Shown: piece after piece, positions 2,148 to 43,846 of the stretch
How positions within the stretch are numbered: position 1 is the first letter of the stretch
How the letters are laid out: each line of letters opens with the position of its first letter
NCBI GenBank assembly: GCA_951812955.1
Contig: OX638340.1
Coordinates: 1,824,001 to 1,888,000, forward strand
Source: an uncultured Gemmatimonadota bacterium
Lineage (GTDB): Bacteria; JAAXHH01
Direction: 5' to 3'
DNA: 64,000 bases
Program-made: the position numbers and the translations under genes
The notes under the pieces: generated by a model
Database searches by the model: none
The model's input: the letters and a program-made list of their open reading frames with translations, nothing else
What the model was told of the DNA's origin: nothing

Positions 2148-2252
2148 GCGACTGGCGCATCGGTCGACGGCTGACAAATTGGTCGGCGACTGGCGCAATG
2201 GTCGGCGGCATGCGCAATGGTCGGCGGCATGCGCAATGGTCGGCGGCTGGCA
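2148..2252. repeat. Tandem array of GC-rich ~19-20 bp units (gcgcaatggtcggcggcat x3 plus two degenerate gactggcgca-ggtcg-cgg copies)
   Basis: Read directly. The repeats create duplicated ORF starts (MVGGMRNGRR twice) just upstream of the PhyH gene's RBS. Confidence 0.8.
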
Positions 2253-2294
2253 CTTTCGAAAATCCCAGTATCGATTCCAGGAAAGGAATCCCCC

Positions 2295-3185
2295 ATGGCG
2301 ATGGTCGACATGAAACAGATCCACGGTCTGGAAGATGTCACGGGGCTGCTGACGCGTCCCGACGAACTACGACAACGTGCCGTGGAGCAAGGTTGTCTGT
2401 TCTTTCGCGGACTTCTCGATCCGGGGAGCGTCCTTGAGGTCCGGCGGCAGGTGCTCGGCGTGTGCCGGGACCACGGGTGGCTCGCGGATGAATCGGACCT
2501 GATGGATGGCGTCGCGAATCCCGGAATCCGCGTAGGTGAAAGCGGCATCCCTAGCTGGCAGGCCTTTTACGATGACGTGCAGCGGATCCGCGATTTTCAC
2601 GCGCTCGCACTGGACCCGTCGATGATCGGGATGCTGGAAGCGCTGTTCGGAGAAACGGTACTGGCCCACAGCCGGAATATCTGCAGGCTGGTGTTCCCGG
2701 ATATGAACGCCCACTCGACACCGCCCCACCAGGACAACTACTTCATCGGCGGATCGGACGAGACGTGGACGGCCTGGATTCCCCTGGGCGACTGTCCCGA
2801 GGAACTCGGCGGACTCGCCGTCAACCGGGGATCCCATCGCAGGGGCATGCTGGAGACGACCGAAGGCGTCGGACCCGGCGGGCGGCAGGTGTACGTCGAA
2901 GACGATTCCACCTGGGTCGGCGGCGACTATGAATGTGGCGACGTGATCATTCTCCACAGCCTGACGATCCACCAGGGCCGGGACAACGTGACATCTGACC
3001 GCCTCAGGATTTCGACCGACTACCGTTACCAGCCAAGAAGCCACCCGGTCCGGGAGGATTCACTCCAACCACACATGAACTGGTTGACCTGGGACGAGAT
3101 ATACGAACAGTGGGATGAGGAAGATCCGGTGAAGTACTACTGGAAGGGCTGGGACTTGGACGTGGTCACGCGGGAGCCTCGATAG
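2295..3185 (+). CDS. Phytanoyl-CoA dioxygenase (PhyH) family Fe(II)/2-oxoglutarate-dependent oxygenase (paralog 1)
   Basis: HQDNYFIGG...TAWIPLGD and a downstream His (HS..IHQG) fit the PhyH-family HxD...H facial triad context. Start chosen at the first ATG after the repeat array, with GGAAAGGAA SD. Confidence 0.7.
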   Translation: MAMVDMKQIHGLEDVTGLLTRPDELRQRAVEQGCLFFRGLLDPGSVLEVRRQVLGVCRDHGWLADESDLMDGVANPGIRVGESGIPSWQAFYDDVQRIRDFHALALDPSMIGMLEALFGETVLAHSRNICRLVFPDMNAHSTPPHQDNYFIGGSDETWTAWIPLGDCPEELGGLAVNRGSHRRGMLETTEGVGPGGRQVYVEDDSTWVGGDYECGDVIILHSLTIHQGRDNVTSDRLRISTDYRYQPRSHPVREDSLQPHMNWLTWDEIYEQWDEEDPVKYYWKGWDLDVVTREPR

Positions 3186-4495: not shown

Positions 4496-5257
4496 TTGGA
4501 CAGCGAACTACTGAAACGGGGATTCGCACCTCGGCCGCTGACGGACGCGCAACGCAGCGCGCTGGACACCGATGGCTTCATCGTGCTGGAGGAGGTCATC
4601 TCGCCAGACTGGCTCTCCGAACTGCGCCATGCATTCGATGAGATATTTGACAGCGAGGGCGATAGAGCCGGTGAGGAGGTCTCCCAGATGGAAGGGGTGC
4701 GCCGGCTTGCCGATCTGGTCAACAAGGGATCGGTATTCGATGCGGTTTACCTGCAGCCCGAGCTTTTGACGGCCGTCTACCATGTCCTGCAGAGGCCGTT
4801 CAAACTGCACTCGCTCAACGGGCACGACCCGCTTCCCAGCAACGGGTTACAGGTGCTGCACGCCGATTGGGGCCAACCTGCCGAGCCCGGCGGGCCGTAT
4901 CATGTCGTTAACTCTTTGTGGATGCTCGACGATTTCACCCTCGCCAACGGTGCGTCACGCTGCGTGCCGGGCAGCCACCTGAAACCCGGCAGGATCGGCG
5001 ACCTCGTAACGGACCGCCTGGCGGACCACCCCGACCAGGTACACCTGACGGGCCGTGCGGGATCGGTTGCCGTATTCAACGGCAGCCTCTGGCACAGCTC
5101 GTATGTCAACCTCAGCGGTGCCCCTCGCCGGACCCTGCACTGCGCCTTCATAGCCCGCGAACACCCGCAACAGACTAATCAGCGGGAGTATCTGCGGCCC
5201 GAGACCGCCCAACGGCTATCCCCACTGGCGCGCTACATCCTCGACGTCCCTCCGTAA
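4496..5257 (+). CDS. PhyH family dioxygenase (paralog 2), TTG start
   Basis: 253 aa with LQVLHADWGQP (His-x-Asp) and GSLWHSS downstream His, typical of the PhyH fold. The ORF ends exactly at the islet boundary. Confidence 0.7.
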   Translation: MDSELLKRGFAPRPLTDAQRSALDTDGFIVLEEVISPDWLSELRHAFDEIFDSEGDRAGEEVSQMEGVRRLADLVNKGSVFDAVYLQPELLTAVYHVLQRPFKLHSLNGHDPLPSNGLQVLHADWGQPAEPGGPYHVVNSLWMLDDFTLANGASRCVPGSHLKPGRIGDLVTDRLADHPDQVHLTGRAGSVAVFNGSLWHSSYVNLSGAPRRTLHCAFIAREHPQQTNQREYLRPETAQRLSPLARYILDVPP

Positions 5258-5496: not shown

Positions 5497-7572
5497 CTAG
5501 TTCACTAACTCAAATACATGCTTAACACTACCGTCCGGTTTTAACACGAGCCCAAACCACTTTTCCAACTTATGTGGGTATACACTTTCTTTGGAATCCC
5601 GGTGAAATTTCTCCTCTAACACCTCCACGGTAGATCTACTACAGTAAATAAACAGTCCTATAGGTAAACCTGGGAACAAAGCACGAACTGTCTGGCTCTT
5701 CTTATTTAATAAATGCCGATTACAAATCCGATTGATATTTTTGTTTATAGTTTTACAAACATCGTCAGACAAGGTTATCAAGAAAAGCCCAAGGTCGATT
5801 TTCAATGGATCGGGGGAGGTTTCCAATTCCTTCAAGATGCTTCCCAAGGGCGTACCAACCAATCTTGTCAGTATGCCATCTGGAGTCGGTATTCCGTCTA
5901 TGCCGTCCCTCCTGACCGCCATTGCAGTATCGAGATGCACTGAGAAATCGTCATCAATTAACATCAAGTCAATATCGTCTCTAAGCCATAGGTTATGTCT
6001 TAGGTGATAGGACAGCAACATATGCTCATGACTCGCCATCAGACGCTCGCCAAATCGTGCCCGTAACTCAAGGTAACTTAAAAACCATAGAGGCGTAGAT
6101 AACATTTCTGATATCGCATCGAGTGAAAAAACGTCGGTGACAAGTGGAGGTAAAATCTGAGTAGTTGACTTGTATTCTAAAAACTGTCTCAACTGAAAAG
6201 CCAACGCCGGGTAATGGTCCGCGATGATTGCTACAGGAAAAATAACCTTCTGAGATTCTTCTATACGGATTACCTCGTTGTTCTTGGTATATAGACTTAC
6301 GGACTGATCTCCGAGGAGTTTAGCACACTCAAATGACTGCTCTACTGCATCTTGAATCGCCATCCTAAAGTCGGATCTTAACACTCGATCGTTCCCTCTT
6401 CGAGATTCCAGTGTTAGCCTTTTTGATTTCGATTGCACCAAAACAACCCGGTCGCCAAATATCACCAAGACATCAATCTCTCCAAGTGTGTGCCCTTTGG
6501 TCTTTCGTAACTCGACGTTTTTATACACTCGATCAGAACCAAAGACATGAACAAGTCTATCATATGTAAAGCTCTCCGTGAAATCCCCTCGATGTGTAAG
6601 TGCTGTTGGTGCATACAAACTATCAGTGCACATCCAATAGAACGGTGTTTCATAAAACGCTTCCGTTAATCCGTAATACTGCAAGAGTACGTATTTATCT
6701 ACATCTCTACGTATGAACGGGTAGATATAGGCTTTGTTAAAGTCATTGATAGTTGAGAAGCCAGCATTTCTTTCGCAAGAAGGTAAAGTAAATGCGTTTA
6801 CAAATGCTTGAACGTCTTCTGTAGGAAATCCTATATAGGAAGCAAGTTCAGTGCAGGAAAAGGTAAAGAAAGGTAAGACCGCCCGATCCTTAGCAGGCCC
6901 TTTTATTTGGTCGCTCAAGACTGTTTCTAAACTCCGGTTTAGGACGTAAGGAATCCCATCACACACCGCCTTTCCAACTACCAAATCAACTGATTTGTTC
7001 TGAGAAAGCCAGTCGGAATCGAGACTGTATTTTGTCAATGCTAGATCACGGTATTGAAAGGGATATGCAGACTCGCCTGCGTAGAAAATGGGTTCCCTAA
7101 GGGATTCCCCGGTAGAGAATGGATTTGCATTAGGGACAGACCCGCCGACTACTCTCCGCTGCATCAACTTCAACGTAGGTTGCACCATAGTTAAGTGCAA
7201 TTCATCCAACAGTTCCGCGGACTTCTTGATGTAATCATTAAGAACTGTAGGTGTTGGCATGGAAAAGTCGATAGGGCCTCGCATCATGAGACCGATTAGC
7301 GTGGTGATTTCGGTACGGATTAGCTGCGAATGGGATCGCCATTGAAGAAGTTCGTCGGAATTTAGTTCATCCTTGAAACCGACGACATTGTCCCGCAGTG
7401 AAATAAAAGCGATTGCGTGAATAAAACCTACGGAGAGGCACAATGCAGCCAGGTCATCAAACACAGACTGTTCTGAGCGCATATAAACGATCCTGGGCTG
7501 TAGCAGACAATTCCAAATTGCGTCTATTGGATTCGAAAGCCAAGAGTTGGATTCTGAATCCGAACCGTTCAT
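5497..7572 (-). CDS. Large hypothetical protein with an internal NERD / PD-(D/E)xK-like nuclease motif; candidate defence effector
   Basis: 691-aa ORF, low-GC codon usage. Central GHTLGEIDVLVIFGDRVVLVQSKSKR resembles the NERD/PD-(D/E)xK core (D...Q/E-x-K). No Walker A and no methyltransferase motifs. Possible Rx4H HEPN-like motif (RLMASH) in the C-terminal third. Confidence 0.6.
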   Translation of the reverse strand: MNGSDSESNSWLSNPIDAIWNCLLQPRIVYMRSEQSVFDDLAALCLSVGFIHAIAFISLRDNVVGFKDELNSDELLQWRSHSQLIRTEITTLIGLMMRGPIDFSMPTPTVLNDYIKKSAELLDELHLTMVQPTLKLMQRRVVGGSVPNANPFSTGESLREPIFYAGESAYPFQYRDLALTKYSLDSDWLSQNKSVDLVVGKAVCDGIPYVLNRSLETVLSDQIKGPAKDRAVLPFFTFSCTELASYIGFPTEDVQAFVNAFTLPSCERNAGFSTINDFNKAYIYPFIRRDVDKYVLLQYYGLTEAFYETPFYWMCTDSLYAPTALTHRGDFTESFTYDRLVHVFGSDRVYKNVELRKTKGHTLGEIDVLVIFGDRVVLVQSKSKRLTLESRRGNDRVLRSDFRMAIQDAVEQSFECAKLLGDQSVSLYTKNNEVIRIEESQKVIFPVAIIADHYPALAFQLRQFLEYKSTTQILPPLVTDVFSLDAISEMLSTPLWFLSYLELRARFGERLMASHEHMLLSYHLRHNLWLRDDIDLMLIDDDFSVHLDTAMAVRRDGIDGIPTPDGILTRLVGTPLGSILKELETSPDPLKIDLGLFLITLSDDVCKTINKNINRICNRHLLNKKSQTVRALFPGLPIGLFIYCSRSTVEVLEEKFHRDSKESVYPHKLEKWFGLVLKPDGSVKHVFELVN

Positions 7573-7708
7573 CCATGGCTTTTAACTTTAGATTCTCCAG
7601 ATAGCTGTTTCGGATAATTAAACAAGTCAGTTCGCCGGAAACATCTCGTGCAACCCGCGCTGATACACCGTTGGTGACTACAGCTTCACCGTCGGTGTGA
7701 ACGCACCT

Positions 7709-7960
7709 TTACCGGTTGTTGTGATTATCCACGGGTTTGTTTTCTTCTGAAGCGTGGTGGTCATCGCCTAACGGGATTAAATCCTTCGATATAGCCAGCG
7801 AACCGCCTATTAGAGCCATGAGTGGAGACTTTACGACTTCGTAAGCGTCCTCCGCTGTCATTCCTCCGCTCCAACACATCGCAACGAAGATGATTATAAG
7901 CGAAGAGTAACCTAAACCCACAAGGACCAGTACATTCTTCCGCCACGGAACCTTCATCAT
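7709..7960 (-). CDS. Small membrane protein (about 83 aa, one or two TM helices) upstream partner of the 691-aa gene
   Basis: Strong RBS AAGGAGGA immediately before an ATG ATG start. Hydrophobic stretch LVLVGLGYSSLIIIFVAMCW. Located 137 bp upstream of the large gene on the same strand. Confidence 0.55.
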   Translation of the reverse strand: MMKVPWRKNVLVLVGLGYSSLIIIFVAMCWSGGMTAEDAYEVVKSPLMALIGGSLAISKDLIPLGDDHHASEENKPVDNHNNR

Positions 7961-8029
7961 ATCCTCCTTTTGGGTATTCTCCCAATTCACATAATATGTT
8001 TGACAATCGCTTTATAATGCTCCGAGCAA

Positions 8030-9796: not shown

Positions 9797-10936
9797 ATGA
9801 TTGAATTGCTCGGCATCGGCCACTTTTTTGAACTTACACGGTCGGAAGCTATTATGGGGTTTTTCACCCCGCTGATCGTCTATGCCGTGTTTTTCCTGGT
9901 GCAGCTCATCCTGCCCGGGCGGAGGGTTCCCGGTTACGTCATCAATCCGGAGACGGGTAAACCGCGCAATTACCGGCTCAACGGCATGCTCGTGTTCCTG
10001 ATCATGCTGATCGTCTGGGCGTTCGAACTCACCGGGATGCCCCACGACTGGTTCTTCCGGTCCTCGATCTACGCTGTGGCCGGCGGAACGGTTTTCGCCA
10101 TTATCTTTACCATAATCGCGACATTTACCCAGCCTGAAGGCAAGGTGAAGAGCCGGTTCCTGGCATGTTGGTTCGGCCGGGCCCAGGAGATTTCGTTCTT
10201 CAACGAGCGTATCGACGTTAAGATGTACATGTACGTTGTCGGCGGGTCGATGCTGTCGCTAAACGCCCTATCCGGGGCCGTGTACCACTACCAGGTATTT
10301 GGAGAGAACGCCAACCCAGGCGTTTTCATCTATGCGGGTTTCTTCACGTTCTACATCCTCGATTACTTCGTCTTTGAGCGCGTGCAACTCTACACCTACG
10401 ACCTGATCCACGAGAATGTGGGCTTCAAGCTGATCTGGGGCTGTCTCGTGGTCTACGGATGGCTATTCATCCTCCCGCTTTGGGGCATGGCCGCCTACCC
10501 GAACCCAGGCTTCTCACCGGCATGGACGAACTTCTGGCTGATTGGCACCTCAGCACTGTTCCTGTTGGGATGGAGCATTTCCCGCGGCGCCAACCTGCAG
10601 AAGTATACGTTTAAAAGGTGGCCCGAACGAAAGTTCCTGGGGCTCATCGAACCGAAATACATTCAGGCTGGCGACCGCAAGATACTCTACAGCGGCCTGT
10701 GGGGCGTCGCCCGCCATCTCAACTACATGGGCGAGGGCTTCCTTTCCCTGTCCATCGCCCTGATATTCGGCTATTTCACCAATTTCTGGGCCTGGACCTA
10801 CCTCCTCTTCATCGTCTCGATGTTCTCCTACCGTCAACTCGATGACGACAGGCACTGCGCCGAGAAATACGGTACCAAAAAGTGGGCGGAATACCAGGAG
10901 AAGGTGAAGTACCGGATCGTGCCGGGGATTTATTGA
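9797..10936 (+). CDS. Sterol reductase family (ERG4/ERG24/7-DHCR-like, DUF1295-related) polytopic membrane protein
   Basis: C-terminal GLWGVARHLNYMGE and RQLDDDRHCAEKYGTKKWAEYQEKVKYRIVPGIY match the sterol-reductase family signatures. Multiple TM segments. Confidence 0.7.
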   Translation: MIELLGIGHFFELTRSEAIMGFFTPLIVYAVFFLVQLILPGRRVPGYVINPETGKPRNYRLNGMLVFLIMLIVWAFELTGMPHDWFFRSSIYAVAGGTVFAIIFTIIATFTQPEGKVKSRFLACWFGRAQEISFFNERIDVKMYMYVVGGSMLSLNALSGAVYHYQVFGENANPGVFIYAGFFTFYILDYFVFERVQLYTYDLIHENVGFKLIWGCLVVYGWLFILPLWGMAAYPNPGFSPAWTNFWLIGTSALFLLGWSISRGANLQKYTFKRWPERKFLGLIEPKYIQAGDRKILYSGLWGVARHLNYMGEGFLSLSIALIFGYFTNFWAWTYLLFIVSMFSYRQLDDDRHCAEKYGTKKWAEYQEKVKYRIVPGIY

Positions 10937-11406
10937 GCGAGGTTATGAGAAACGCTAGTTCAGATTGCTTCCAAATCGTAGCGATATAGATCAGCGGACC
11001 AGGGAAGAGGGCATACCCTCTCAAGCGCTGCCGTCTAGCGCCATCCAAAGGCACCTGTCCGGCCGCCTTACAGAGAAGAAGTAAAATGACCCTGTGTCCG
11101 CCTCTGCATGGGCACCGGGGTTGTATTAAACCGGTTTGTCGACGAGCTTTTTATCCTCCTCGCCCGGTTGGTACTCCTTACATATCCTGGTGACCGGTTT
11201 TACCCGAACCTGACCAGACTCATCTTCCTCTGTTTATCACATGAAGCATACTGATCTACGGTTGCGCTGCTGTCTGCGAATGCTATATTGCCTCGTCGAC
11301 AACGTAAACGCACGCGACCCAAATGCACCCGAACCAAACGCACCTGAAGAAAATACACTCATAGCAAATGCACGCACCGAACAGGAAACGTTAGGATAGT
11401 TTGAAC

Positions 11407-13713
11407 ATGACAAAGGCTAGTTTGATTTTTACGGCAGTGGCGCGCTGTTGTATGGCAGCGGGCGCAATTTACTTCGCGAGCGCGATTCATTCCACTCCGA
11501 CCGCCGACGCCCAGGTTACCGAGCATCGGCTCACCATTCTCCACACCAACGATCTACAGGGCGGTATCTACTCCGAGGACGGTTTCGACGATGGGGACCA
11601 GGCTGGGAACCAGGATCCGGAAGATGCGGCGGACCGGGGCGGCCTGGCCACGCTCGCGTCGATGATCCAAGCCCATGGCCGCGCCGGTGCAGACTCGATC
11701 TTGGTACTGGACGGCGGAAATGCCATGGGCGCGACGCCTGCCTGCGACGTGGACGGCTGCCGCACGCTGTTTCAACTCATGAGTATGGCGGGGTACGATG
11801 CCATGGCCGTAGGCAGCCACGAGTTCACATATGGTATCGACACCCTCACCACCCGTGCGGGGCAGGCGGATTTCCCCATACTGGGCGCTAATCTGGGACT
11901 TGGCGACACGGTCCATGGGGCCACCACGCCATTCCTCCTGACCGAAAGGAGCGGATTGCGGATCGCCGTCATGGGGCTCGTTTCCTCCCGAACGGCCGAC
12001 GACCTTTCATCGGTGAACCCCGCGGACTTGGAATTCCACGATCCGCGGGCGACGCTCGAGTCACTTCTGGCTGGGCCCGCGGGCCTCGCAGACTTGCGAA
12101 TCGCACTCGTCAACATGAGCATGGACGAGGCAAGGGACCTCGCGCTGGCCTTTCCCCAGGTACAGCTGTTCATCGCGGGAGGCACGGCTGCCGGTCCCGA
12201 ACCGCGCCCTGCGGAACATGTGGTCCGCTTCGTCGGTGGTCGATACCTGGTTACCACGCCGGGACGGGGTACCCACCTGGGTAGACTCGAAATCACTTTC
12301 CGCCGGGACGGTGCCAAGACGGTTGTTTCCAATCTGATTCCCGTCCTGGTACCTGCCGGTTCGTCCCTGCTTCCATACCTCGCGACCGCAACAGGTTCGT
12401 CCGATACATCCGGTGCCGCGACACCAAATCCTGCGCCCGTGCCTATGGATCCCGCGGTATCGGCTCTCGTCGCCGGGCACAGAGAAACCGTGCGCAGAAT
12501 CTATGACGTCCGCATTGGCAGGACCCGGGAACCCATCGAGGATACCGGATCCTGGATCGCCGACCTGGCGCGCACGAAACTGGCGGCCGACGTCGCGGTG
12601 ATCGATCGGCACGCGCTTCGGCCGTTACGATTGGACGGGGAGGTTCGACTGCGTTCGGTTACACGGCTGGTGCGCGACAACGATGTGCTGGTCCGCGTTT
12701 CCATGTCTGGACGGCAGTTGCGGACATGGGCCGGCGGGCTGCCGCGGGAACACGAAGTGGTCTTTGCGGGGTACGATGGGGATTCCGGCGAGGTCGACGG
12801 GCGGCCGCTGAATCGGGACAGGACGTACGTGGTGGCAGTCCCGTTGGTCCTGGCGGATCAGAATCTGACCCGGCAGGTCAGGAATTCTCGCTTATCGAAC
12901 GTTCCCGGTGCACGCATTGGACTGAGGGAAATGGTGGCAGCCCACGTGCGGATTCACGGTACCGTGGACCGCTGGCAGGGAATTCGGCGGGGGCCGCGCA
13001 GTGCAACGGAGGGCAGCACACGGTTAAACGGCTCCTTGTCGCAGACTACGCTGGAAGGGCCCGTCGACCAGTACAGCCGCGATCCGTTCCTGAGTGGAGA
13101 GGAAGCCCTGGCCTGGATCGTCAACGTAGAGCACAATTCAACCCGGTACACCCCGGCGGGAACGTTTTCGGCTCTGTTGAGGACAGGCTACGGCAGGTTG
13201 AACAACAACGGGAGCCAACGGGAGGCCTTGGACCGGATCGACGGCGAACTGCTCTATTCACTGCCGCATTCGCAACTGTCCCAGTTCCTCGGGTTCGACG
13301 TCAACACGGTGTGGACGGGTGACGAAGGTCGGAAACACCCTGTTGTGCTTCGGTTCAAGGGAGGTCTCCAGTCGGAGCTCGGTTCCCAGGCGATCGTTCG
13401 TGTCGGTCTGGCCCTGGAGAGAGACCGGATCACCGCGATGAATGTCGTGGGCATCGAGGTGGCGCCCGAGTACCGGACGACACTTCTTCCAGGCAATACG
13501 CTATCGTCTCAGGCCCGCGTTTTCTGGGGAACCGGTCAGCACCAGACCATGTCTGTACAGCACTTCAACCACCTGCGTTTCCGCCTGCTGGACGATCTTG
13601 CCGCCACGCTCGACGCGAACATCTTCCTCCACCGGGACAGCGACATCGACCGGTCGGCCGTCAAGTTCGAACTGCAGGTCGGCCTCGGATACGACTGGCG
13701 TTACTACAGGTGA
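11407..13713 (+). CDS. Secreted bifunctional metallophosphatase / 5'-nucleotidase fused to a C-terminal domain of unknown function
   Basis: Signal-peptide-like N-terminus. LTILHTNDLQGG metallophosphoesterase motif (5'-nucleotidase N-domain). About 760 aa with a long C-terminal extension. Confidence 0.7.
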   Translation: MTKASLIFTAVARCCMAAGAIYFASAIHSTPTADAQVTEHRLTILHTNDLQGGIYSEDGFDDGDQAGNQDPEDAADRGGLATLASMIQAHGRAGADSILVLDGGNAMGATPACDVDGCRTLFQLMSMAGYDAMAVGSHEFTYGIDTLTTRAGQADFPILGANLGLGDTVHGATTPFLLTERSGLRIAVMGLVSSRTADDLSSVNPADLEFHDPRATLESLLAGPAGLADLRIALVNMSMDEARDLALAFPQVQLFIAGGTAAGPEPRPAEHVVRFVGGRYLVTTPGRGTHLGRLEITFRRDGAKTVVSNLIPVLVPAGSSLLPYLATATGSSDTSGAATPNPAPVPMDPAVSALVAGHRETVRRIYDVRIGRTREPIEDTGSWIADLARTKLAADVAVIDRHALRPLRLDGEVRLRSVTRLVRDNDVLVRVSMSGRQLRTWAGGLPREHEVVFAGYDGDSGEVDGRPLNRDRTYVVAVPLVLADQNLTRQVRNSRLSNVPGARIGLREMVAAHVRIHGTVDRWQGIRRGPRSATEGSTRLNGSLSQTTLEGPVDQYSRDPFLSGEEALAWIVNVEHNSTRYTPAGTFSALLRTGYGRLNNNGSQREALDRIDGELLYSLPHSQLSQFLGFDVNTVWTGDEGRKHPVVLRFKGGLQSELGSQAIVRVGLALERDRITAMNVVGIEVAPEYRTTLLPGNTLSSQARVFWGTGQHQTMSVQHFNHLRFRLLDDLAATLDANIFLHRDSDIDRSAVKFELQVGLGYDWRYYR

Positions 13714-13771
13714 CCGCGGAAGCGCCTGAGCTTGCTGGTCCATTTACCGAAACAGGGCCACTTCGGCGCAC

Positions 13772-14509
13772 TCAGTTCTTCCTCGCCACATGCCGATCTT
13801 CATACACACCCTTCAGAAACTTCTTCGGATTGAATTCTTCGGGCATGTAATGCCATGCTGTACTGTAGCGCGTGCGATGGCTGTGATTATCATAGGCGCC
13901 GTGCAGCAGATTTGCGGAAAACAGCACGACCGTCCCCGCGGGGATGACCAGGTCCACCGCCTGCGCTTCATCGACCTTCGTCCAGCTGCCATGGCGGCTT
14001 AATTCGCTGCAGTGCTCGACAATCTCGCCTATCCGGTGGCTGCCGGGCACTACCCGCAGACAACCATTCTCCACGTCTGCATCTTCCAGGTAAATTCCGC
14101 AGCTGACAATACGATCCGTGTCGGTCCCAAAATAGAAATTGTCCTGGTGCCAGCCCGTCGACGTGCCGCCATTGGGCAGCTTCGGGAAGAACTTGGTACC
14201 GAACACGTCGATATCTCCACCAATCAGATCGGCCACACGGTCCACAATCGCCGGCTCGCGCGCCAGTTCCAGCACACGGTCGTCGACCACGCAAACCCCC
14301 TGGACTTTGTGCAACAAACCCGCCCGAGGTTCGCCTCGCTCGTCCAACTCGAGCGCCCAGTGGGGTGTCTGCTCTTTCAATTTGCTTCCCTCGGCGACCA
14401 TTTCATCGAACACCTGCTTGTACCAGTCCAGTCGCTCACCTTGAATGAGGGCTTCAAAAACGAGATAGCCATCTTCTCGAAACTGCAGTATCTGTTCGCT
14501 AGTCAACAT
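13772..14509 (-). CDS. PhyH family dioxygenase (paralog 3)
   Basis: MLTSEQILQFREDGYLVF N-terminus, WHQDNFYFG (HxD), PGSHR and LLHGAYDN motifs. ATG chosen at 14509; the ORF extends to a TTG at 14542. Confidence 0.75.
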   Translation of the reverse strand: MLTSEQILQFREDGYLVFEALIQGERLDWYKQVFDEMVAEGSKLKEQTPHWALELDERGEPRAGLLHKVQGVCVVDDRVLELAREPAIVDRVADLIGGDIDVFGTKFFPKLPNGGTSTGWHQDNFYFGTDTDRIVSCGIYLEDADVENGCLRVVPGSHRIGEIVEHCSELSRHGSWTKVDEAQAVDLVIPAGTVVLFSANLLHGAYDNHSHRTRYSTAWHYMPEEFNPKKFLKGVYEDRHVARKN

Positions 14510-14636
14510 GAGAACCTCATTAGAATCCGCGTCCTTCGCCAACTAGCGCTCCAGCAGTCGGCGACCGGCGGCGGCCATCTTCCCCGCAATCCGCTTATCT
14601 TCCTCGCGCTCCGACAAGTAGCAACAGGCCGCGGGA

Positions 14637-15479
14637 TCATTCGCCTGGCATTTCTTCAAGCGTCTCCAGCCAGCGATAGCCATATTCCGGAACAGTTGGC
14701 GAGCCGGTCATACCATCGGGAAACATGCTGAATTTTTCGACGCGCAGGCGATAGTTGTATTCGTGCCTGGGATTGAAACCCACGATCTCGCCGCGGTAGG
14801 GGTCGCCGTTATAGACCTTGCAGAAACCGGGATGGCCGTCGCCGCACTCGACCCTGCCCCAATCGACGGTGATCTCCTCTTCCGTGCCTTCCGCCCTGGT
14901 TTTCGAGACGATTTCATCCAACAAGTACCGGCCGTCTGCATACCTGTTGACTTCGAGGACATAGTGATAGCCGGCCTCATAATCGAAGCCCGTGATCAAG
15001 TCTTCGTACGGCACGCCGTCCAACACCAGGCAGAAGTCGTCGCTTTGAGCGCACACCACACGCGCCGAACCCACCGCCAGGGTTGTGTGGGTGGAAGGCG
15101 CCGGGGTCTTCTCCAGCTGCTCCAGCAAGCGATAGGCATACTGGCCTGCGTCCTGCGGCGGCTCTCTCCCGCCCCAGGGATCGTACTTGCCGATTCGCAG
15201 GCGATAGTTATAACCTGCTTCGTATTCGAATCCTTCGATCGCATCGTAGAACAAACCGCCGTCGACGATCATGCACGACTGCTCGCCCACGCCGTAGCAC
15301 CTGACCAGGGTGGGGCCGACGGTAACGACCCGTGTCTCGATATACTCCGGTCCGGCCGGCCCGGGCCCTACCGGATCCGTGGAATCGTCACAGCCGGTGA
15401 ATACCAGGGCCGTCAGGGTAATCAACAACGAGAGAACGGAGCTTTGGCGGCGATAGGTCGAAGTAAGCTCAGGTTGCAT
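14637..15479 (-). CDS. Lipoprotein with three tandem ~60-aa repeats (DUF4377-like)
   Basis: Lipobox LVFTGCDD. Three repeats each containing GF(E/D/N)YE(A)GY(N/H)Y.L(R/E)(I/V).KY. Confidence 0.55.
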   Translation of the reverse strand: MQPELTSTYRRQSSVLSLLITLTALVFTGCDDSTDPVGPGPAGPEYIETRVVTVGPTLVRCYGVGEQSCMIVDGGLFYDAIEGFEYEAGYNYRLRIGKYDPWGGREPPQDAGQYAYRLLEQLEKTPAPSTHTTLAVGSARVVCAQSDDFCLVLDGVPYEDLITGFDYEAGYHYVLEVNRYADGRYLLDEIVSKTRAEGTEEEITVDWGRVECGDGHPGFCKVYNGDPYRGEIVGFNPRHEYNYRLRVEKFSMFPDGMTGSPTVPEYGYRWLETLEEMPGE

Positions 15480-15660
15480 GCTGGCGTATCTCGGATGGGA
15501 CAGCAGGAACAGTATTCTAACTTACTTCTAAACTTACCAAAACTTCCTATGAAGCATCAAGACCAATTTGAGGGAGCTGTGGTTCTCGCACGCGTGCAAT
15601 TCGCCCCATATTCCTCTTGCCTGGACAAGGGTAAGATCGGTATTTTTCCTAACCGAATGA

Positions 15661-17862
<2,202 letters not shown>

Positions 17863-17969
17863 TCGCGGCATATGCCGGGCGCGACTTCGTGAGCGCGCGG
17901 ACCAAGCATCAGGAGGAGGGCGAATCGTTCGCGTGATTCGCGATTTCGAGCGCCAGTTGAAGGTGGCGA

Positions 17970-18641
17970 TCAGTGCCCCAGAACACGGTAGCTGTCGTCC
18001 AGGATCAGACGAACCGACACGTAGCATCCTAATAGCGCGAAGAGCACCCAGGGCGCATTCATAGCGCCGATATAGATGTACAATTCGCTCCTGGTGATGA
18101 GACGATGCCGGCCGGCCAAGAAGAAGCTGATCCAATAGACCGACGTGACGTAGGCCCACTGCCAGGAGAGCACGAGCCCGAGTATGCCAGCCAGGACAGC
18201 CGGCATGAAATCGATGGTAAAAGCCGCGTAGAGAAACACGGTCGGTAGCGGCGTAAAGAATCCGTTTGCCACGTCTACGTTGAAGCCCAATGTACGGCGG
18301 TCCGAGAAGGATTCGTCGATTTGGGAGTACGTAGCCCAGACATCCGCCCATACGACCGGGTTCAATATCCGCCTCAGCGGTACCCTGGTTAAAAGAAACT
18401 CAACAGCCGGCGTCCGGCCGGTTTCGCGTTTCCGAGTGCGCCAATACTCGGTGCGCGTCTCGACATAATCCCGTTTGAGGAAAAGACACACTTCCCAATA
18501 GCACACCACCAGGTTGGTCGAGAAAAAAAGACTCAGCAGCCCGTGGATGGCGTTGAAATCCCCTGAGATATAGATTCGGGTACCGATTCCGAGCAGTGCC
18601 AGCAGCATGACCGCCAGCGCTGCGAACAGTCCGGGTGCCAT
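17970..18641 (-). CDS. EXPERA / emopamil-binding-protein (EBP)-like four-TM membrane protein
   Basis: 223 aa, four hydrophobic segments. WATYSQIDESFSDRR resembles the EBP WKEYxKGDSRY motif. Good GGAG SD. Confidence 0.45.
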   Translation of the reverse strand: MAPGLFAALAVMLLALLGIGTRIYISGDFNAIHGLLSLFFSTNLVVCYWEVCLFLKRDYVETRTEYWRTRKRETGRTPAVEFLLTRVPLRRILNPVVWADVWATYSQIDESFSDRRTLGFNVDVANGFFTPLPTVFLYAAFTIDFMPAVLAGILGLVLSWQWAYVTSVYWISFFLAGRHRLITRSELYIYIGAMNAPWVLFALLGCYVSVRLILDDSYRVLGH

Positions 18642-30941: not shown

Positions 30942-31736
30942 ATGTTGACCGCCCATCAGAGATCCGAATTCGATGAGCATGGCTGGGTTCGCGTGCCCGG
31001 CATGATTCCGATCGAGGACGTCCGGCAGGTGCTGGATCGCATCTGGGACGATCTGGAGCAAAGGTGCGGGATCCCGCGCGATGATCCTGAGACCTGGCCT
31101 GTGACCAGGCCCAAGGGGTTCAATACGTTAATGCGGTCCGGAGCCTTCGAACCCACGTGCAGCCAAGCCGTGCAGGATGCGATTGACGATCTCCTGGGAC
31201 CTGGCCAATGGGAGAAACCATCCCCCTGGGGAGCACTCCTCCTTACCTTTCCTTCTAGCGAGCCGTGGGTTCTGCCCAATCATTCATGGCACATGGACCT
31301 GCTCAAAGCCGTGCATGACGGGGCCGAAACAACCCCGGGCGTACAGGTCTTCGCGATGCTGGAACCGCTGACCGCACAGGGCGGTGCAACGATTGGCCTT
31401 GCCGGGTCCCATCGGCTCGTTCGCCACCTTGCTCGGCAACCGGAGCTAATCGGTGAGGGCCGGTCTAAAGATATCAGTAAAGCAGTCAGGAGAGCGGCGC
31501 CAAATCTACGAGATCTGTGGTCCCGCGACCCTGGCGGTGACCGCGAGGAGCGTTACCTTATGAAACCAGTCGATGTTTTCGGCATCCCGGTGCAGGCCGT
31601 CGAATTCACCGGCGATCCAGGCGATGTGATCTTTATGCATCCGTGGATTTTGCATACAGCTTCTGCCAACTGCGGAAAGCGGCCTCGCATCGTGATTACA
31701 GAACGCAATTACAGAATCGAAAGAGAAGAGGCATAG
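30942..31736 (+). CDS. PhyH family dioxygenase (paralog 4)
   Basis: MLTAHQRSEFDEHGWVRVPGMI N-terminus, HSWHMD (HxD) and ILHTAS distal His. Its stop codon abuts the GTG start of the next FtsX gene. Confidence 0.75.
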   Translation: MLTAHQRSEFDEHGWVRVPGMIPIEDVRQVLDRIWDDLEQRCGIPRDDPETWPVTRPKGFNTLMRSGAFEPTCSQAVQDAIDDLLGPGQWEKPSPWGALLLTFPSSEPWVLPNHSWHMDLLKAVHDGAETTPGVQVFAMLEPLTAQGGATIGLAGSHRLVRHLARQPELIGEGRSKDISKAVRRAAPNLRDLWSRDPGGDREERYLMKPVDVFGIPVQAVEFTGDPGDVIFMHPWILHTASANCGKRPRIVITERNYRIEREEA

Positions 31737-34142
31737 GTGTTCCAGAACTACCTCAGTGTAGCCTTACGCAACCTCCGCAGGCATCCCGCCTACTCGCTCA
31801 TCAACATCGCAGGGCTTGCAATCGGCATGGCCACCTGCGTCCTGATCCTCCTGTATATCCAGGATGAGCTCAGCTACGACCGATATCATCCTCATGCCGA
31901 CCGCGTATACCGGATCGTCGACGACATCGAAAGCGGGGGACAGACCGTCCAGACCGCCGGGACTCCCACTGCCTGGGGACCTGCCCTGAAGCGCGACTTC
32001 CCCGAGATCGAGCTCGTTGTCCGGTTGAGAGGTACAGAATCCGCGTGGCTGGTCGATCTCGGCAACACAATCTACTATGAACGCAAAGTCATCTGGGCGG
32101 GATCGGACCTGTTCAGGATGTTCAGTTTTCCACTGGTCGCGGGCGACCCGGGCACCGCGCTGGCAGAACCGTATTCGATGGTGATCACCGAGGAATTGGC
32201 AGACAAGTATTTCGGCGCCGAAGAAGCCATTGGCAAAGCAGTCAATCTCGACAATCGCTGGGACTTCACGGTGACGGGCGTCATGAAGAACATTCCTACC
32301 AATTCTCACATGCGTCCAGACATGTTCGTATCCTATAGCACAATGATTGCGATACAGGCCTCCTGGGACCTGGAAGACTGGGAGTACCACCGAAACCTGT
32401 ACACCTACATCCGGCTCCGCGAGCATGTGTCACCGGATGATCTGGAAGCGAAATTGCCGGCATTTCTGGAACGTCACGCGGGTGACCAGTACCGGGAGGC
32501 GGGCATCAGCCTGCGGCCGTCGCTCCAGCCCCTGGTGGACATCCACCTCTATTCTAACCGGGAGAGTGAGCACGAACCCAACGGCGATATCCGGTACGTG
32601 GCCCTCTTCATGGCCATCGCGTTCCTGATCCTTATTATCGCATGCATCAATTTCATCAACCTGGCCACGGCCCGTTCCGAGATGCGCGCCAGGGAAGTCG
32701 GTGTGAGAAAGGTACTGGGCGCGAATCGGATCCAGTTGATCCGCCAGTTCCTGGGAGAATCGGTCCTCATGGCAGGTCTCGCCGCGATCGTTGCGGTAAT
32801 ACTGGTCCATCTCGCCTTGCCTGCCGTGAACGATATCGCGGGGAAACAACTCGCGCTGCCGCTTGCTGACTGGACCGTGCTGGCCGCGCTGGCCCTCGGT
32901 ACGACCTTGATCGGATTAACCGCCGGCAGTTATCCCGCGGCATACCTGTCGGGATTTCTTCCCGCCGTAGTAATGAAAGGCAACCCGGAGACGGGAAAGA
33001 AAGGCCTGGGGATGCGGCAGGCACTGGTGGTGATACAGTTCTCCATGTCCATCTTCCTGCTGGTCAGTACGGCCATCATCCATGATCAGCTCGATTACAT
33101 CCAGACCAAGCGGCTGGGTTTCAACAAAGAGCACGTTATGGTCGTCCCCATAACAGGTTCCCCGCAACTGCCAAATACGCCTGTCCTGAAGCAGCGCCTG
33201 TCGGAATTGCCCGGTGTCGTGGGTATCGCAACGACCACCGGCGTGCCAGGCATGCGGGTTATGCCTATCCTGGAGGTACGTCCCGAAGGAATGCGGCCTG
33301 AGGATCACCTGATGATGGCCACGCTGCACGTGGACGAGCACTTCCTGGACGTCATGAACATCGATCTCGTCGCTGGCCGGAACTTTTCATCGGACTGGGG
33401 TACGGATACGACCAGGGGGATCCTGATGAACGAGACGGCCGTCCGGTACCTGGACTGGGGAGCGCCCGACGACGCCATCGGCAGGCAAATCGAGCGGCTC
33501 AACTACAACAGGACGAAAGGCCGTGTGATCGGCGTGGTTCGGGATTTCCACCTGCGGACCATACACGAAGAGATCGAACCCGCATTGATCATGACCAGCA
33601 CCTATCACATTTTCGTCCTGATTCGAATCCAGCCCGAGGGAATCTCTGACACCATTGCACACATCGAGGAAATATGGAGGGATGTGGATCCCAGGTTTCC
33701 GCTGGATTATACCTTCCTGGACGAGGATTTCGACGCGCTGTACCGGACCGACCAGCAGCTTGGCGAGATCTTCGCGGTCTTCGCGTTTCTCGCGATCTTC
33801 GTGGCCTGCCTTGGACTCCTGGGTCTGGCTTCCTTTTCCATCCAGCAACGCACCCGCGAGATCGGAATCCGCAAAGTAGTCGGTTCATCGGTTTCCAGTA
33901 TCGTGTTGCTCCTGTCGAAGGATTTTATGAAGTACGTGCTCCTGGCGAACCTGATCGCCTGGCCGCTGACCTACTTCGTCATGAACAACTGGCTGCAGAA
34001 CTACGCCTACGCCGCGGAACTTCGATTCGAGTGGTTTATGGCCGGCGGTGTTTTTGCCCTGGTCATTGCCTGGTTGACGATCGGTGCGCATGCCCTCGCT
34101 GCGTCGCGTAGGAATCCGGTGAACGCGTTGCGGCAGGGGTGA
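31737..34142 (+). CDS. ABC transporter permease, FtsX/MacB-like (paralog 2), GTG start
   Basis: Same architecture and N-/C-terminal signatures as 28387-30783. Confidence 0.9.
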   Translation: MFQNYLSVALRNLRRHPAYSLINIAGLAIGMATCVLILLYIQDELSYDRYHPHADRVYRIVDDIESGGQTVQTAGTPTAWGPALKRDFPEIELVVRLRGTESAWLVDLGNTIYYERKVIWAGSDLFRMFSFPLVAGDPGTALAEPYSMVITEELADKYFGAEEAIGKAVNLDNRWDFTVTGVMKNIPTNSHMRPDMFVSYSTMIAIQASWDLEDWEYHRNLYTYIRLREHVSPDDLEAKLPAFLERHAGDQYREAGISLRPSLQPLVDIHLYSNRESEHEPNGDIRYVALFMAIAFLILIIACINFINLATARSEMRAREVGVRKVLGANRIQLIRQFLGESVLMAGLAAIVAVILVHLALPAVNDIAGKQLALPLADWTVLAALALGTTLIGLTAGSYPAAYLSGFLPAVVMKGNPETGKKGLGMRQALVVIQFSMSIFLLVSTAIIHDQLDYIQTKRLGFNKEHVMVVPITGSPQLPNTPVLKQRLSELPGVVGIATTTGVPGMRVMPILEVRPEGMRPEDHLMMATLHVDEHFLDVMNIDLVAGRNFSSDWGTDTTRGILMNETAVRYLDWGAPDDAIGRQIERLNYNRTKGRVIGVVRDFHLRTIHEEIEPALIMTSTYHIFVLIRIQPEGISDTIAHIEEIWRDVDPRFPLDYTFLDEDFDALYRTDQQLGEIFAVFAFLAIFVACLGLLGLASFSIQQRTREIGIRKVVGSSVSSIVLLLSKDFMKYVLLANLIAWPLTYFVMNNWLQNYAYAAELRFEWFMAGGVFALVIAWLTIGAHALAASRRNPVNALRQG

Positions 34143-34700: not shown

Positions 34701-37106
34701 ATGGTTTTCCATTACCTCAGAATCGCCCTACGTAACATGATCCGGCAGCCTGGCTACGCCGGCATCAACATCCTCGGACTGGCGATCGGCATCACCTGCT
34801 GTATGCTGATTTTGCTGTATATCCGGAACGAACTGAGCTACGACCGTTTCCATGATCATGCCGATCGGATCTACCGTGTAGTAAACGGCAATTCCGCCCG
34901 CACGCCACCCGCAGTGGGACCGGCGTTCAAAGAACTGTTCCTGGAGGTAGAGGAATATGCCCGGATGCGGGGCACAGCCAATATCTGGATGATGGCCTAT
35001 GGGGACAATGCCTTCTTTGAAAGCGATGTCTTCAGGGCAAGCAGAGGCGTTTTCAAGGTCTTTTCTTTTCCGCTTGTACGGGGAAATCCACAAACCGCAC
35101 TGGACGACTATGCGCATCCGGAACAAACTGTCGTCATCAGCGAAACTATGGCGACTAAACTCTTCGGTGACGAAAATCCCATGGGCAAGCTGATCCGCGC
35201 GGACGATGAGGAAGACCTTCGTGTGACCGGTGTGATGAAAGCTGTGCCGTCCAATTCCCACTTCGCCGTCGAATATCTGGTTTGTGAGCGTCTCGATGTT
35301 GGAAATCTCAGCGAGCGTTACGCAACGAACTGGTTTGCTGCGGTGCATTTCACCTACGTTCTGCTGTCAGAGGGAACAGACCCCAGTGAATTGGAGAATA
35401 AAATCGCCAGATGGGCAGATACCTTTGAACCGCTGATGCGGCTCAAGGCGCGAGGCCTGCCCTTCACTCCCCGGCTACAGCCAATGACCGACATCCATCT
35501 GCGGTCGCACCTGGAAGAGGATATGGCAAGCAACAGCGATATCAGCTACATCTACATCTTTTCGGTCGTAGCGTTTTTTGTCGTTCTGATCGCCTGTATC
35601 AACTTCATGAATCTGGCCACGGCGCGGGCTACCATCCGGGCTAGAGAAGTGGCCATTCGGAAAACAACAGGCGCTTCGCGGACCGAGTTGATCATACAAT
35701 ACATGGGCGAGTCCATGATGTCGGCCGGGTTGGCCTTTGTAGTTGCCATGGCCCTCTTTATCGCCATCCTGCCCTGGTTCAATACGCTGGTGGGAAAGGC
35801 GTTTCAGATCAGTTACCTTGACAGTCCGGAGATGTTGCTCTGGATGATGGGCATAACGTTGTTTGTGGGACTGTTGTCCGGCAGTTATCCTGCGCTGTTT
35901 ATATCCAGGATTCATCCGGCAGGGATTTTCAGGGGTGAATTGACAAGCGGAACCACGGGTTCCACACTGCGCAAGAGCCTTGTGGTGGCGCAGTTCACGC
36001 TATCGATTCTGCTGATTATCAGTACGGCTATTGTGTATCAACAGCTGGATCACATGCAAAGTAAACAACTGGGATTCGATAAGGACCAGGTCGTGGTAAT
36101 CCCACTTATCGGAGGTGTGGAGCGGGATTTCAATGCCTTCAAGGCCCGGCTTTCCCAGAGTCCACATATTCAGCGTGTTACTCGATCTGTATTGATGCCG
36201 GGACGTATGGCCAGTTCCGTTCAAATGCCCGCCTTTGCAACACGTCTGGCAGATCAGCCTGAAGAGAAAATGGTCAGGATTCCCGCCCTGTTTGTTTCTG
36301 CCGATTTCGAAGAAACCCTTGGTCTCAGATTGCTTTCCGGACGTCCATTTTCCAGCGAACTGAACGATGATTCGAACAACGCGGTGATCCTTAACCGGGC
36401 CGCGGTTGAACGATTGGGGCTGACCACACCGGAGGAAGTCGCAGGACTTCATATACGTTACATAGGGAGCTCTCCAATCAGGATCATAGGCGTCGTAGAG
36501 GATTTCCATATGCAGAGCGTTCATAGTGCGGCAGGGCCGGTACAGCTGAGGTTCATGAACCGCGGTGGCGGCGGCCAGGCGGCGATACGATTACAGGCGC
36601 AGAATATACCGGATGGGATTGATGCGATTGAAGACACATGGGCTTCGATATTCCCCGACTACCCGTTAGCGTATTCGTTTCTGGATGAAGATTTCGAGCG
36701 ATTGTACGTGTCGGAACGACAGACCGGCAATCTGCTCGGGGCATTCAGCTTTCTAGCCATCTTCATTGCGTGTCTGGGCCTGTTCGGCCTTGCTGCGTTC
36801 ACCACCCGTCAGCAAACCAAAGAGGTCGGTATTCACAAAGTAATGGGGGCTTCGGTGACTCGTATCGTCTTTATGCTTTCAAAGGATTTTCTCAAGCTGG
36901 TAGCGATTGCCGTACCGGTCGCCTGGGTCCTGGCTTACTGGGCCATGAGCAACTGGCTGCAGAACTTCGCGTATCGGGTCGATATCGGCCCCGCGTGGTT
37001 CCTGATCGCCGCTTTCCTGGCACTGGCCATCGCACTGGCTACAGTCAGTTTCAAGGCGGTAACGACTGCGTTGACGAACCCGGTGGAGAGCCTGCGGTCA
37101 GAATAG
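34701..37106 (+). CDS. ABC transporter permease, FtsX/MacB-like (paralog 3, the most divergent)
   Basis: MVFHYLRIALRNMIRQPGYAGINILGLAIGITCCMLILLYIRNELSYDRFH; 801 aa. Confidence 0.9.
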   Translation: MVFHYLRIALRNMIRQPGYAGINILGLAIGITCCMLILLYIRNELSYDRFHDHADRIYRVVNGNSARTPPAVGPAFKELFLEVEEYARMRGTANIWMMAYGDNAFFESDVFRASRGVFKVFSFPLVRGNPQTALDDYAHPEQTVVISETMATKLFGDENPMGKLIRADDEEDLRVTGVMKAVPSNSHFAVEYLVCERLDVGNLSERYATNWFAAVHFTYVLLSEGTDPSELENKIARWADTFEPLMRLKARGLPFTPRLQPMTDIHLRSHLEEDMASNSDISYIYIFSVVAFFVVLIACINFMNLATARATIRAREVAIRKTTGASRTELIIQYMGESMMSAGLAFVVAMALFIAILPWFNTLVGKAFQISYLDSPEMLLWMMGITLFVGLLSGSYPALFISRIHPAGIFRGELTSGTTGSTLRKSLVVAQFTLSILLIISTAIVYQQLDHMQSKQLGFDKDQVVVIPLIGGVERDFNAFKARLSQSPHIQRVTRSVLMPGRMASSVQMPAFATRLADQPEEKMVRIPALFVSADFEETLGLRLLSGRPFSSELNDDSNNAVILNRAAVERLGLTTPEEVAGLHIRYIGSSPIRIIGVVEDFHMQSVHSAAGPVQLRFMNRGGGGQAAIRLQAQNIPDGIDAIEDTWASIFPDYPLAYSFLDEDFERLYVSERQTGNLLGAFSFLAIFIACLGLFGLAAFTTRQQTKEVGIHKVMGASVTRIVFMLSKDFLKLVAIAVPVAWVLAYWAMSNWLQNFAYRVDIGPAWFLIAAFLALAIALATVSFKAVTTALTNPVESLRSE

Positions 37107-43765: not shown

Positions 43766-43846
43766 AAAGTGCCTTCTTGGGATGGTAGGTAGTAAAGATT
43801 GAGATTAGGGTTGTGCCAGTCTGGTCTGGCACCAAGGACGGGCATC

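Follow-up and report, generated by a model that had tools for sequence, protein, structure and literature searches.

A 64-kb stretch of DNA (56.6% GC; hereinafter the window) from a sponge-associated Gemmatimonadota bacterium encodes two membrane proteins with relatives in sterol metabolism: a reductase of the ERG4/ERG24 family, hereinafter designated class A, and a protein that resembles human EBP, the 3-beta-hydroxysteroid delta-8,delta-7 isomerase (Table 1). On balance, alignments and structure models lead us to favour the reading that both genes belong to a sterol toolkit of sponge symbionts, with the EBP-like protein as a predicted EBP-type delta-8 to delta-7 isomerase and class A as a putative divergent sterol reductase that does not act on delta-14. 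This reading is carried by the assigned families and folds, by conserved residues and by the genomic association with sterol genes, from which we infer the substrate and the exact double bonds. Because steranes serve as biomarkers of eukaryotes and sponges in the rock record, it matters which sterols bacteria can make.

Sterol genes of sponge symbionts, including ERG24 homologs, are already known. Clusters of ERG24, CYP51 and LSS occur in 115 of 537 Ircinia metagenome-assembled genomes (MAGs) from 10 phyla including Gemmatimonadota; they are under purifying selection and horizontally transferred, and are flanked by 'DFR' and hypothetical proteins, with an isomerase annotated as ERG2 in some cassettes (Kelly et al. 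2022; PMC9531527). The initial annotation of the window called such sterol modification rare and patchy in bacteria, which is true in general, but in sponge microbiomes it is common and already reported (PMC9531527). In vitro activity has been shown for sterol methyltransferases (SMTs) of symbionts (Brown et al. 2023; PMC10070321). Cyclisation, demethylation at C-14 and C-4 and methylation of the side chain are accounted for by the published cassettes, with ring double-bond tailoring largely unassigned. A widespread and strongly conserved EBP-fold protein inside these cassettes is a concrete candidate for this tailoring, and the divergent reductase clade is a second candidate enzyme of the same pathway.

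Two elements appear to be new: a bacterial EXPERA clade, invisible to Pfam, that recurs as a member of sterol clusters, and the divergent reductase clade formed by classes A and B. A limited literature search, including the text of PMC9531527 and PMC10070321, found no EBP/EXPERA-type gene mentioned for the clusters of bacterial sponge symbionts, and a text search of the same two papers found no separate class A/B reductase clade.

Fold of the EBP-like protein

The structure model of the EBP-like protein contains five transmembrane helices (residues 3–26, 31–55, 118–143, 148–175 and 184–215), rather than the four first counted from the sequence, and a charged non-membrane helix at residues 57–74. 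The model contains the four-helix EXPERA fold, and its predicted topology adds one N-terminal helix to the EXPERA core, like that of EBP. A Foldseek search with a second model retrieved EBP with a probability of 1.00 and TM-scores of 0.57–0.62, with every other target below 0.33. Consistent with this, the family profile (A2) matched EBP alone when searched against the whole PDB (E 0.06), and hhalign of the family against human EBP (a sequence identical to that of 6OHT) gave an E value of 1.5e-4. PF05241, the Pfam EXPERA family, is matched weakly by 10 of 60 family members (best E 0.0029). Thus the EBP/EXPERA-like assignment of the initial annotation holds for the fold and for most of the EBP active-site pattern, and fails for Pfam membership. 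Model and alignments together place the 223-residue protein in the EXPERA superfamily, as a remote bacterial branch.

Putative active-site residues of the EBP-like protein

Mutagenesis of EBP has defined 11 determinants, namely H76, E80, W101, Y104, D108, R110, Y111, E122, T125, N193 and W196 (PMC4263179). Eight of these align with residues that are kept or conservatively replaced in the EBP-like protein (W102, Y105, D109, Y112, D123, N126, N195 and W198). Specifically, both hmmsearch and hhalign pair W102, Y105, D109 and Y112 with EBP W101, Y104, D108 and Y111, and N195 and W198 with N193 and W196; the hmmsearch alignment pairs D123 and N126 with E122 and T125, and hhalign pairs Y164 and Y169 with Y160 and Y165. 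Position 112 is Phe in the window protein itself. D109, N126, Y169 and W198 are invariant across the family, while E50, N43, W98, W102, Y105, D123 and N195 are at least 90% conserved. Of the W..Y...D.R motif noticed earlier in the sequence, only W..Y...D (W102, Y105 and D109) is found, S111 occupying the 'R' position.

Conserved acidic residues of the EXPERA superfamily lie at EBP positions 108 and 80 (PMC4263179). The invariant D109 aligns with EBP D108. E50 is likely the counterpart of EBP E80, as judged from its position in the second transmembrane helix (TM2) alone, the global hhalign alignment of the N-terminal half being unreliable.

The EBP-like gene in other genomes

Searching one genome from each GTDB species yielded 339 genomes that encode a relative of the EBP-like protein. 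Genomic context was counted for the best 80 of these (60–82% identity; 80 species, all MAGs), with markers sought in the 10-kb flanks. The 80 loci come from Gemmatimonadota, Latescibacterota, Acidobacteriota, Rhodothermales, Nitrospirales, Nitrospinota, Dadabacteria/Thermodesulfobacteriota, Alpha- and Gammaproteobacteria, Chloroflexota and Binatia, and many of them carry sponge-microbiome bin names. At least one sterol marker is present at 35 of the 80 loci. Specifically, an ERG4/24-family gene lies near the EBP-like gene at 25 loci in different arrangements (seven class A, four class B and 14 class C, as defined below), a squalene epoxidase–oxidosqualene cyclase (SE–OSC) fusion at 13, an SMT at 14, and an amine-oxidase-like flavoprotein at 11, often directly adjacent. 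Pfam confirmed the markers (SE with SQHop_cyclase_N/C, p450, Rieske, Sterol_MT_C, 3Beta_HSD/Epimerase, and MMPL with Sterol-sensing), and the best NCBIfam matches of the Rieske and epimerase genes of the clusters are SdmA (406 bits) and SdmB (295 bits), respectively.

The 13 SE–OSC loci belong to Nitrospirales, Alpha- and Gammaproteobacteria and Vicinamibacteraceae, and the EBP-like copies inside sterol clusters are 62–69% identical to the window protein. Because such orthologs adjoin the SE–OSC fusion at these loci, the substrate is probably a sterol rather than a hopanoid. In other phyla the EBP-like gene is found inside complete clusters for sterol synthesis. A typical layout, that of an Arenicellales locus (L044), is SdmB-like, SdmA-like, ERG24 (class C), CYP51-like, SQMO-OSC, SMT, EBP-like, amine-oxidase-like, RND transporter with sterol-sensing domain, and GPP34–P450 fusion. 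In Acidobacteria, the layout is class B reductase, SdmA-like Rieske, DUF1295, EBP-like, DUF1214, sulfotransferase and two short-chain dehydrogenases (SDRs). Latescibacterota loci that share the synteny of the window carry an SMT immediately next to the EBP-like gene, one that is absent from the window.

Several partners in these clusters deserve description in their own right. The SE–OSC fusion protein has about 1130–1150 residues (L062, 5219–8674, and 12 other loci; also P0391–P0510). Between Alphaproteobacteria, Gammaproteobacteria, Nitrospirales and Vicinamibacteraceae, its cyclase part shows 72–91% identity, in keeping with horizontal transfer from one sponge symbiont to another. The amine-oxidase-like protein (459 residues; L073, 8527–9906; L058, 8200–9579; L044, 10685–12076; L072, 7350–8708; L004, 3567–4949), whose best PDB relative is LkcE, may be another candidate sterol-tailoring enzyme. 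Fusions of GPP34 (GOLPH3-like) and cytochrome P450 of about 670 residues also recur in sterol clusters (L073, 6383–8416; L004, 5239–9647; L092, 1896–3872); the N-terminal GPP34, a eukaryote-typical domain, makes this an odd combination. A DUF1214–sulfotransferase–SDR module directly follows the EBP-like gene in Acidobacteria (L035, L047 and L069, at about 10.8–15.4 kb) and also lies just upstream of the class A reductase on a Nitrospirales chromosome (L088, 1564–5599). Sponges contain sulfated sterols, and the module hints at sterol sulfation by symbionts.

The class A reductase

As the initial annotation proposed, the reductase belongs to ERG4_ERG24 (PF01222; 125.1 bits, cut-off 27) rather than DUF1295 (30 bits), with the PF01222 match spanning profile positions 76–432. 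Its best PDB match is MaSR1 (4QUV; E 5e-34), with MaSR1 alignable from residue 76 to the C-terminus. The homologues listed are nearly all 379 residues long and at least 75% identical, and their source names are Gemmatimonadota, Dadabacteria, Chloroflexi, Acidimicrobiia/Actinomycetia and Acidobacteria.

We take 'LNPR' and 'LLHRxxRDxxxCxxKYG' to be the canonical PROSITE-type signatures of the family; the comparison itself was made with MaSR1 and with class C reductases. Both C-terminal signatures had initially been reported in the window protein. The first, RHxNYxG(D/E), is indeed present as GVARHLNYMGE, whereas the second is degenerate. The cofactor-site motif G(W)WGxxRHxNYxG(D/E) of the reductase (SGLWGVARHLNYMGE) aligns with that of MaSR1 (SGWWGIARHMNYFGD).

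The classes were defined by aligning the window reductase with the ERG4/24 genes near EBP-like genes in other genomes. Class A, the window type, is 45% identical to class B (about 365 residues; Acidobacteria), 28–30% to class C and 33% to MaSR1. Class C (about 366 residues) is 28–33% identical to classes A and B, and 38–40% to MaSR1. Class C and MaSR1 retain (E)LNP and HR(S/E)(R/K)RD(E/D). In class A/B, the cofactor motif RHxNYxGE and the tail motif CxxKYG are conserved, YRQLDD replaces HRxxRD, and FNER plus an insertion replaces LNP. Because the canonical LNP and HRxxRD motifs are altered, class A/B forms a divergent subclade.

The genomic settings of the classes also differ. Class C always lies between the SdmA-like Rieske gene and the CYP51-like P450 gene, beside the cyclase, while class A is adjacent to CYP51 or OSC in none of the loci read. 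One Nitrospirales chromosome (2,618,325 bp) carries class A at 0.56 Mb and an OSC cluster with its own class C at 0.81 Mb, so the two classes coexist. Judged by sequence class and gene position, class A is predicted not to be the delta-14 reductase of the sterol cassette, a position held by class C. In Dadabacteria, a 77%-identical class A ortholog lies between two GPP34–P450 fusions and an SMT, beside a sterol-sensing RND transporter, in a block that also holds an amine-oxidase-like gene.

Two further loci were inspected. A 244-residue ORF without Pfam match near the class A reductase of an Actinomycetia contig (L089) was judged not to be an EBP-like gene. At L091 (14844–16793), a fourth, longer ERG4/ERG24 paralog (443 residues) comes after an SMT and precedes an EBP-like ORF that is truncated (138 residues aligned, 62% identity), a pairing of reductase and EBP-like gene that is possibly decaying.

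Standing of the two genes in the window

The coordinates first given for both ORFs are exact (Table 1). At a threshold of E<=1e-3, the reductase has 1004 database homologues and the EBP-like protein 522, the closest at 88–98% identity, so both ORFs are genuine genes and not chance. The closest named relatives are Gemmatimonadota MAGs. GC content at third codon positions (GC3) is 0.77 for the reductase gene and 0.71 for the EBP-like gene, within the 0.66–0.79 range of flanking genes; both genes are thus resident in the genome, and their recent horizontal acquisition by the source genome was rejected. Synteny near both genes (ceramidase-like, PhyH, DUF4377, KatG, M19 dipeptidase and FG-GAP protein) is found again in 8–12 related loci. 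The 7-kb spacing pointed out in the initial annotation reflects conserved synteny and not an operon. Promoter and terminator scans around the reductase gave background level.

A proposed pathway and its alternatives

In the proposed pathway, both genes would be drawn from a sterol toolkit horizontally shared among sponge symbionts. The EBP-like protein would most likely isomerise a double bond of the sterol nucleus as EBP does, from delta-8 to delta-7, through protonation and deprotonation in a membrane-embedded cavity that E50, D109, D123, N126, N195 and W198 would line. Class A, a divergent ERG4/ERG24 clade, would be an NADPH-dependent sterol C=C reductase for a step other than delta-14 reduction, which would be carried out by the cluster-encoded class C enzyme; candidate bonds are delta-7 and the side-chain delta-24(28). 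The source bacterium would either make the sterol itself or tailor a sterol from the host or neighbouring symbionts. Sterol modification, already suggested in the initial annotation, is supported by the higher score of the reductase on PF01222 than on DUF1295 and by the EBP-like orthologs beside SE–OSC fusions. The EBP-like protein can be tested in existing E. coli sterol-production systems.

Several observations weigh against this pathway. In the window, the reductase and EBP-like genes are each monocistronic, four genes with no apparent relation to them lie in between (5'-nucleotidase-like, PhyH, DUF4377 and KatG), and no cyclase, CYP51, SdmA/B or SMT lies within the 64 kb. Elsewhere, 45 of the 80 EBP-like loci have no sterol marker within 10 kb, and only one of four OSC-selected clusters has an EBP-like gene nearby, that copy being partial. 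The window EBP-like protein has no Pfam match, so it falls below the EXPERA threshold, and even the family consensus scores 15.3 bits on PF05241 against a cut-off of 25.7. The position of EBP R110 is an invariant Ser (S111) in the family, and no counterpart of EBP H76 was identified in the unreliably aligned N-terminal half. The reductase has FSYRQLDDDRHCAEKYG where MaSR1 and cluster-type reductases have HRxxRD(D/E)xxCxxKYG (H to Y, second R to D), and its upstream 'LNP(R)' motif is changed to FNER with an insertion (FFNERIDV). Class A is solitary in Chloroflexi, Actinomycetia and Nitrospirales. With the canonical motifs absent and the gene solitary in those groups, any substrate named for class A is tentative.

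We think it unlikely that the EBP-like protein catalyses some other carbocation-type step on a sterol or triterpenoid, with class A as a redundant delta-14 reductase. Examples of such steps are delta-8 to delta-8(14), delta-7 to delta-8(14), and cyclopropyl-ring opening of cycloartenol-type products. In favour of this reading, the protein differs from EBP in the replacements of E122 by D, T125 by N and R110 by S and in an insertion of about 40 residues between TM2 and the motif helix; unusual 8(14)-sterols occur in sponges (PMC13277303), and the automatic JGI name of class A orthologs is 'delta14-sterol reductase'. However, the 8(14) bond of methanotrophs is made by an unrelated NTF2-type enzyme (PMC13277303), the neighbour of CYP51 is class C and not class A, and the presence of class A and a cluster-encoded class C on one chromosome argues against simple redundancy.

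Equally improbable, in our judgement, is that the EBP-like protein is a non-catalytic protein for sterol binding, sensing or handling that works with sterol-sensing RND transporters. Its model would be the sigma-2 receptor/TMEM97 (7M93), a sterol-binding protein with no established isomerase activity; TMEM97 has four transmembrane helices without the extra N-terminal helix and matches the EBP-like protein more weakly than EBP does.

Least probable is that in the source genome the two genes are unrelated to each other or to sterols and act on hopanoids or other lipids, their proximity being inherited synteny: 7 kb separates them, they lie on opposite strands, each is apparently a transcription unit of its own, and the window has no sterol gene between or around them, but both proteins are 62–88% identical to orthologs in or beside sterol clusters of other phyla, Latescibacterota loci of the same synteny have the adjacent SMT, an SDR of the window type accompanies the EBP-like gene in Acidobacteria, and hopanoid genes were seen in none of the loci.

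The EBP-type isomerase pathway may be extended, tentatively, to a broader proposal. The EBP-like family could be the functional C-8 sterol isomerase of many bacterial pathways, within a bacterial 'late' sterol-tailoring module. Such a module might comprise the EBP-like protein, class A/B reductases, the adjacent amine-oxidase-like flavoenzyme and SDRs, to which Acidobacteria and Nitrospirales would add the DUF1214–sulfotransferase pair. If so, it would shape the ring unsaturation, and perhaps the sulfation, of sponge-type sterols, and symbionts would make or finish some of the unusual sterols that sponges contain.

The EBP-like clade also bears on whether EBP-type isomerases arose solely within eukaryotes. 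EBP, ERG4 and DHCR7 have been inferred to have arisen among eukaryotes (Hoshino and Gaucher 2021; PMC8237579), and the EXPERA superfamily has been framed in eukaryotic terms (PMC4263179). If the EBP-like family does act as a C-8 isomerase, EBP-type isomerases would not have originated in eukaryotes alone, contrary to what PMC8237579 infers.

Other genes of the window

The window also encodes an SDR that is 55% identical to the Acidobacteria SDR found 3–4 kb downstream of EBP-like genes. SDRs of this type lie within 10 kb of the EBP-like gene at 13 of the 80 loci (54–88% identity) and weakly at a fourteenth (L066, 27%), spanning Gemmatimonadota, Latescibacterota and Acidobacteria. By association only, the window SDR is a possible third member of the same tailoring set.

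A NERD-domain gene, in a low-GC stretch at about 6000–8000, separates the PhyH/SDR genes from the ceramidase-like gene, neighbours in related loci, and has the look of a recent insertion of foreign DNA. Three of the four PhyH-type genes lie in the block that holds the reductase and EBP-like genes. The long C-terminal extension of the 5'-nucleotidase/UshA-like protein matches no family, and its gene takes the place of a small SAM methyltransferase in related loci (e.g. L012). Ankyrin-repeat proteins, a eukaryote-like class, are reported to be enriched in sponge symbionts (PMC9531527), and the one encoded here fits a host-associated origin of the window.

Table 1. Genes of the window discussed in the text (positions counted from its first letter)
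Feature	Position	Strand	Remarks
ERG4/ERG24-family membrane reductase (class A), 379 residues	9797–10936	+	PF01222 125 bits; MaSR1 match
EBP-like protein (predicted EXPERA fold), 223 residues, five predicted transmembrane helices	17970–18641	-	unannotated bacterial family; candidate sterol delta-8/delta-7 isomerase
Short-chain dehydrogenase (SDR), 376 residues	3220–4350	+	Pfam adh_short
NERD-domain protein, 691 residues	5497–7572	-	GC 0.43; GC3 0.445 versus 0.66–0.79 in neighbours
PhyH-type Fe(II)/2-oxoglutarate dioxygenases, four genes	2217–3185; 4496–5257; 13772–14542; 30942–31736		
5'-nucleotidase/UshA-like protein, 770 residues	11401–13713		
MacB_PCD/FtsX permeases, four paralogs of about 800 residues	28387–30783; 31737–34142; 34701–37106; 52017–54422		duplicated type
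Ankyrin-repeat protein	43799–44650		

Comparison with known systems

The nearest characterised relative of the EBP-like protein is human EBP (6OHT/8W0R; PF05241), to which it is about 15% identical, below the Pfam threshold. It differs from EBP in a charged insertion of about 40 residues (56–94) after TM2, in the replacement of E122 by D, T125 by N and R110 by S, and in having no identified equivalent of His76. Unlike EBP, the family is bacterial and extends across more than 10 phyla.

Class A belongs to the same Pfam family as class C and MaSR1, the delta-14 sterol reductase of Methylotuvimicrobium alcaliphilum, and has the cofactor motif RHxNYxG(D/E) and the tail motif CxxKYG in common with them. 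It differs from them in sequence, with only 28–33% identity, and in its FNER (with insertion) and YRQLDD motifs in place of LNP and HRxxRD.

The clusters of steroid genes (CSGs) of sponge symbionts (PMC9531527, PMC10070321) come from the same gene pool, habitat and phyla as the window genes, and conservation across phyla suggests horizontal transfer. The genes of these cassettes, namely SdmB-like ('DFR'), Rieske, ERG24, CYP51, LSS and SMT, are those found around the EBP-like gene here. In the published descriptions, ERG2 is given as the C-8 isomerase of some cassettes, and 'hypothetical proteins' are left without assignment (PMC9531527, PMC10070321).

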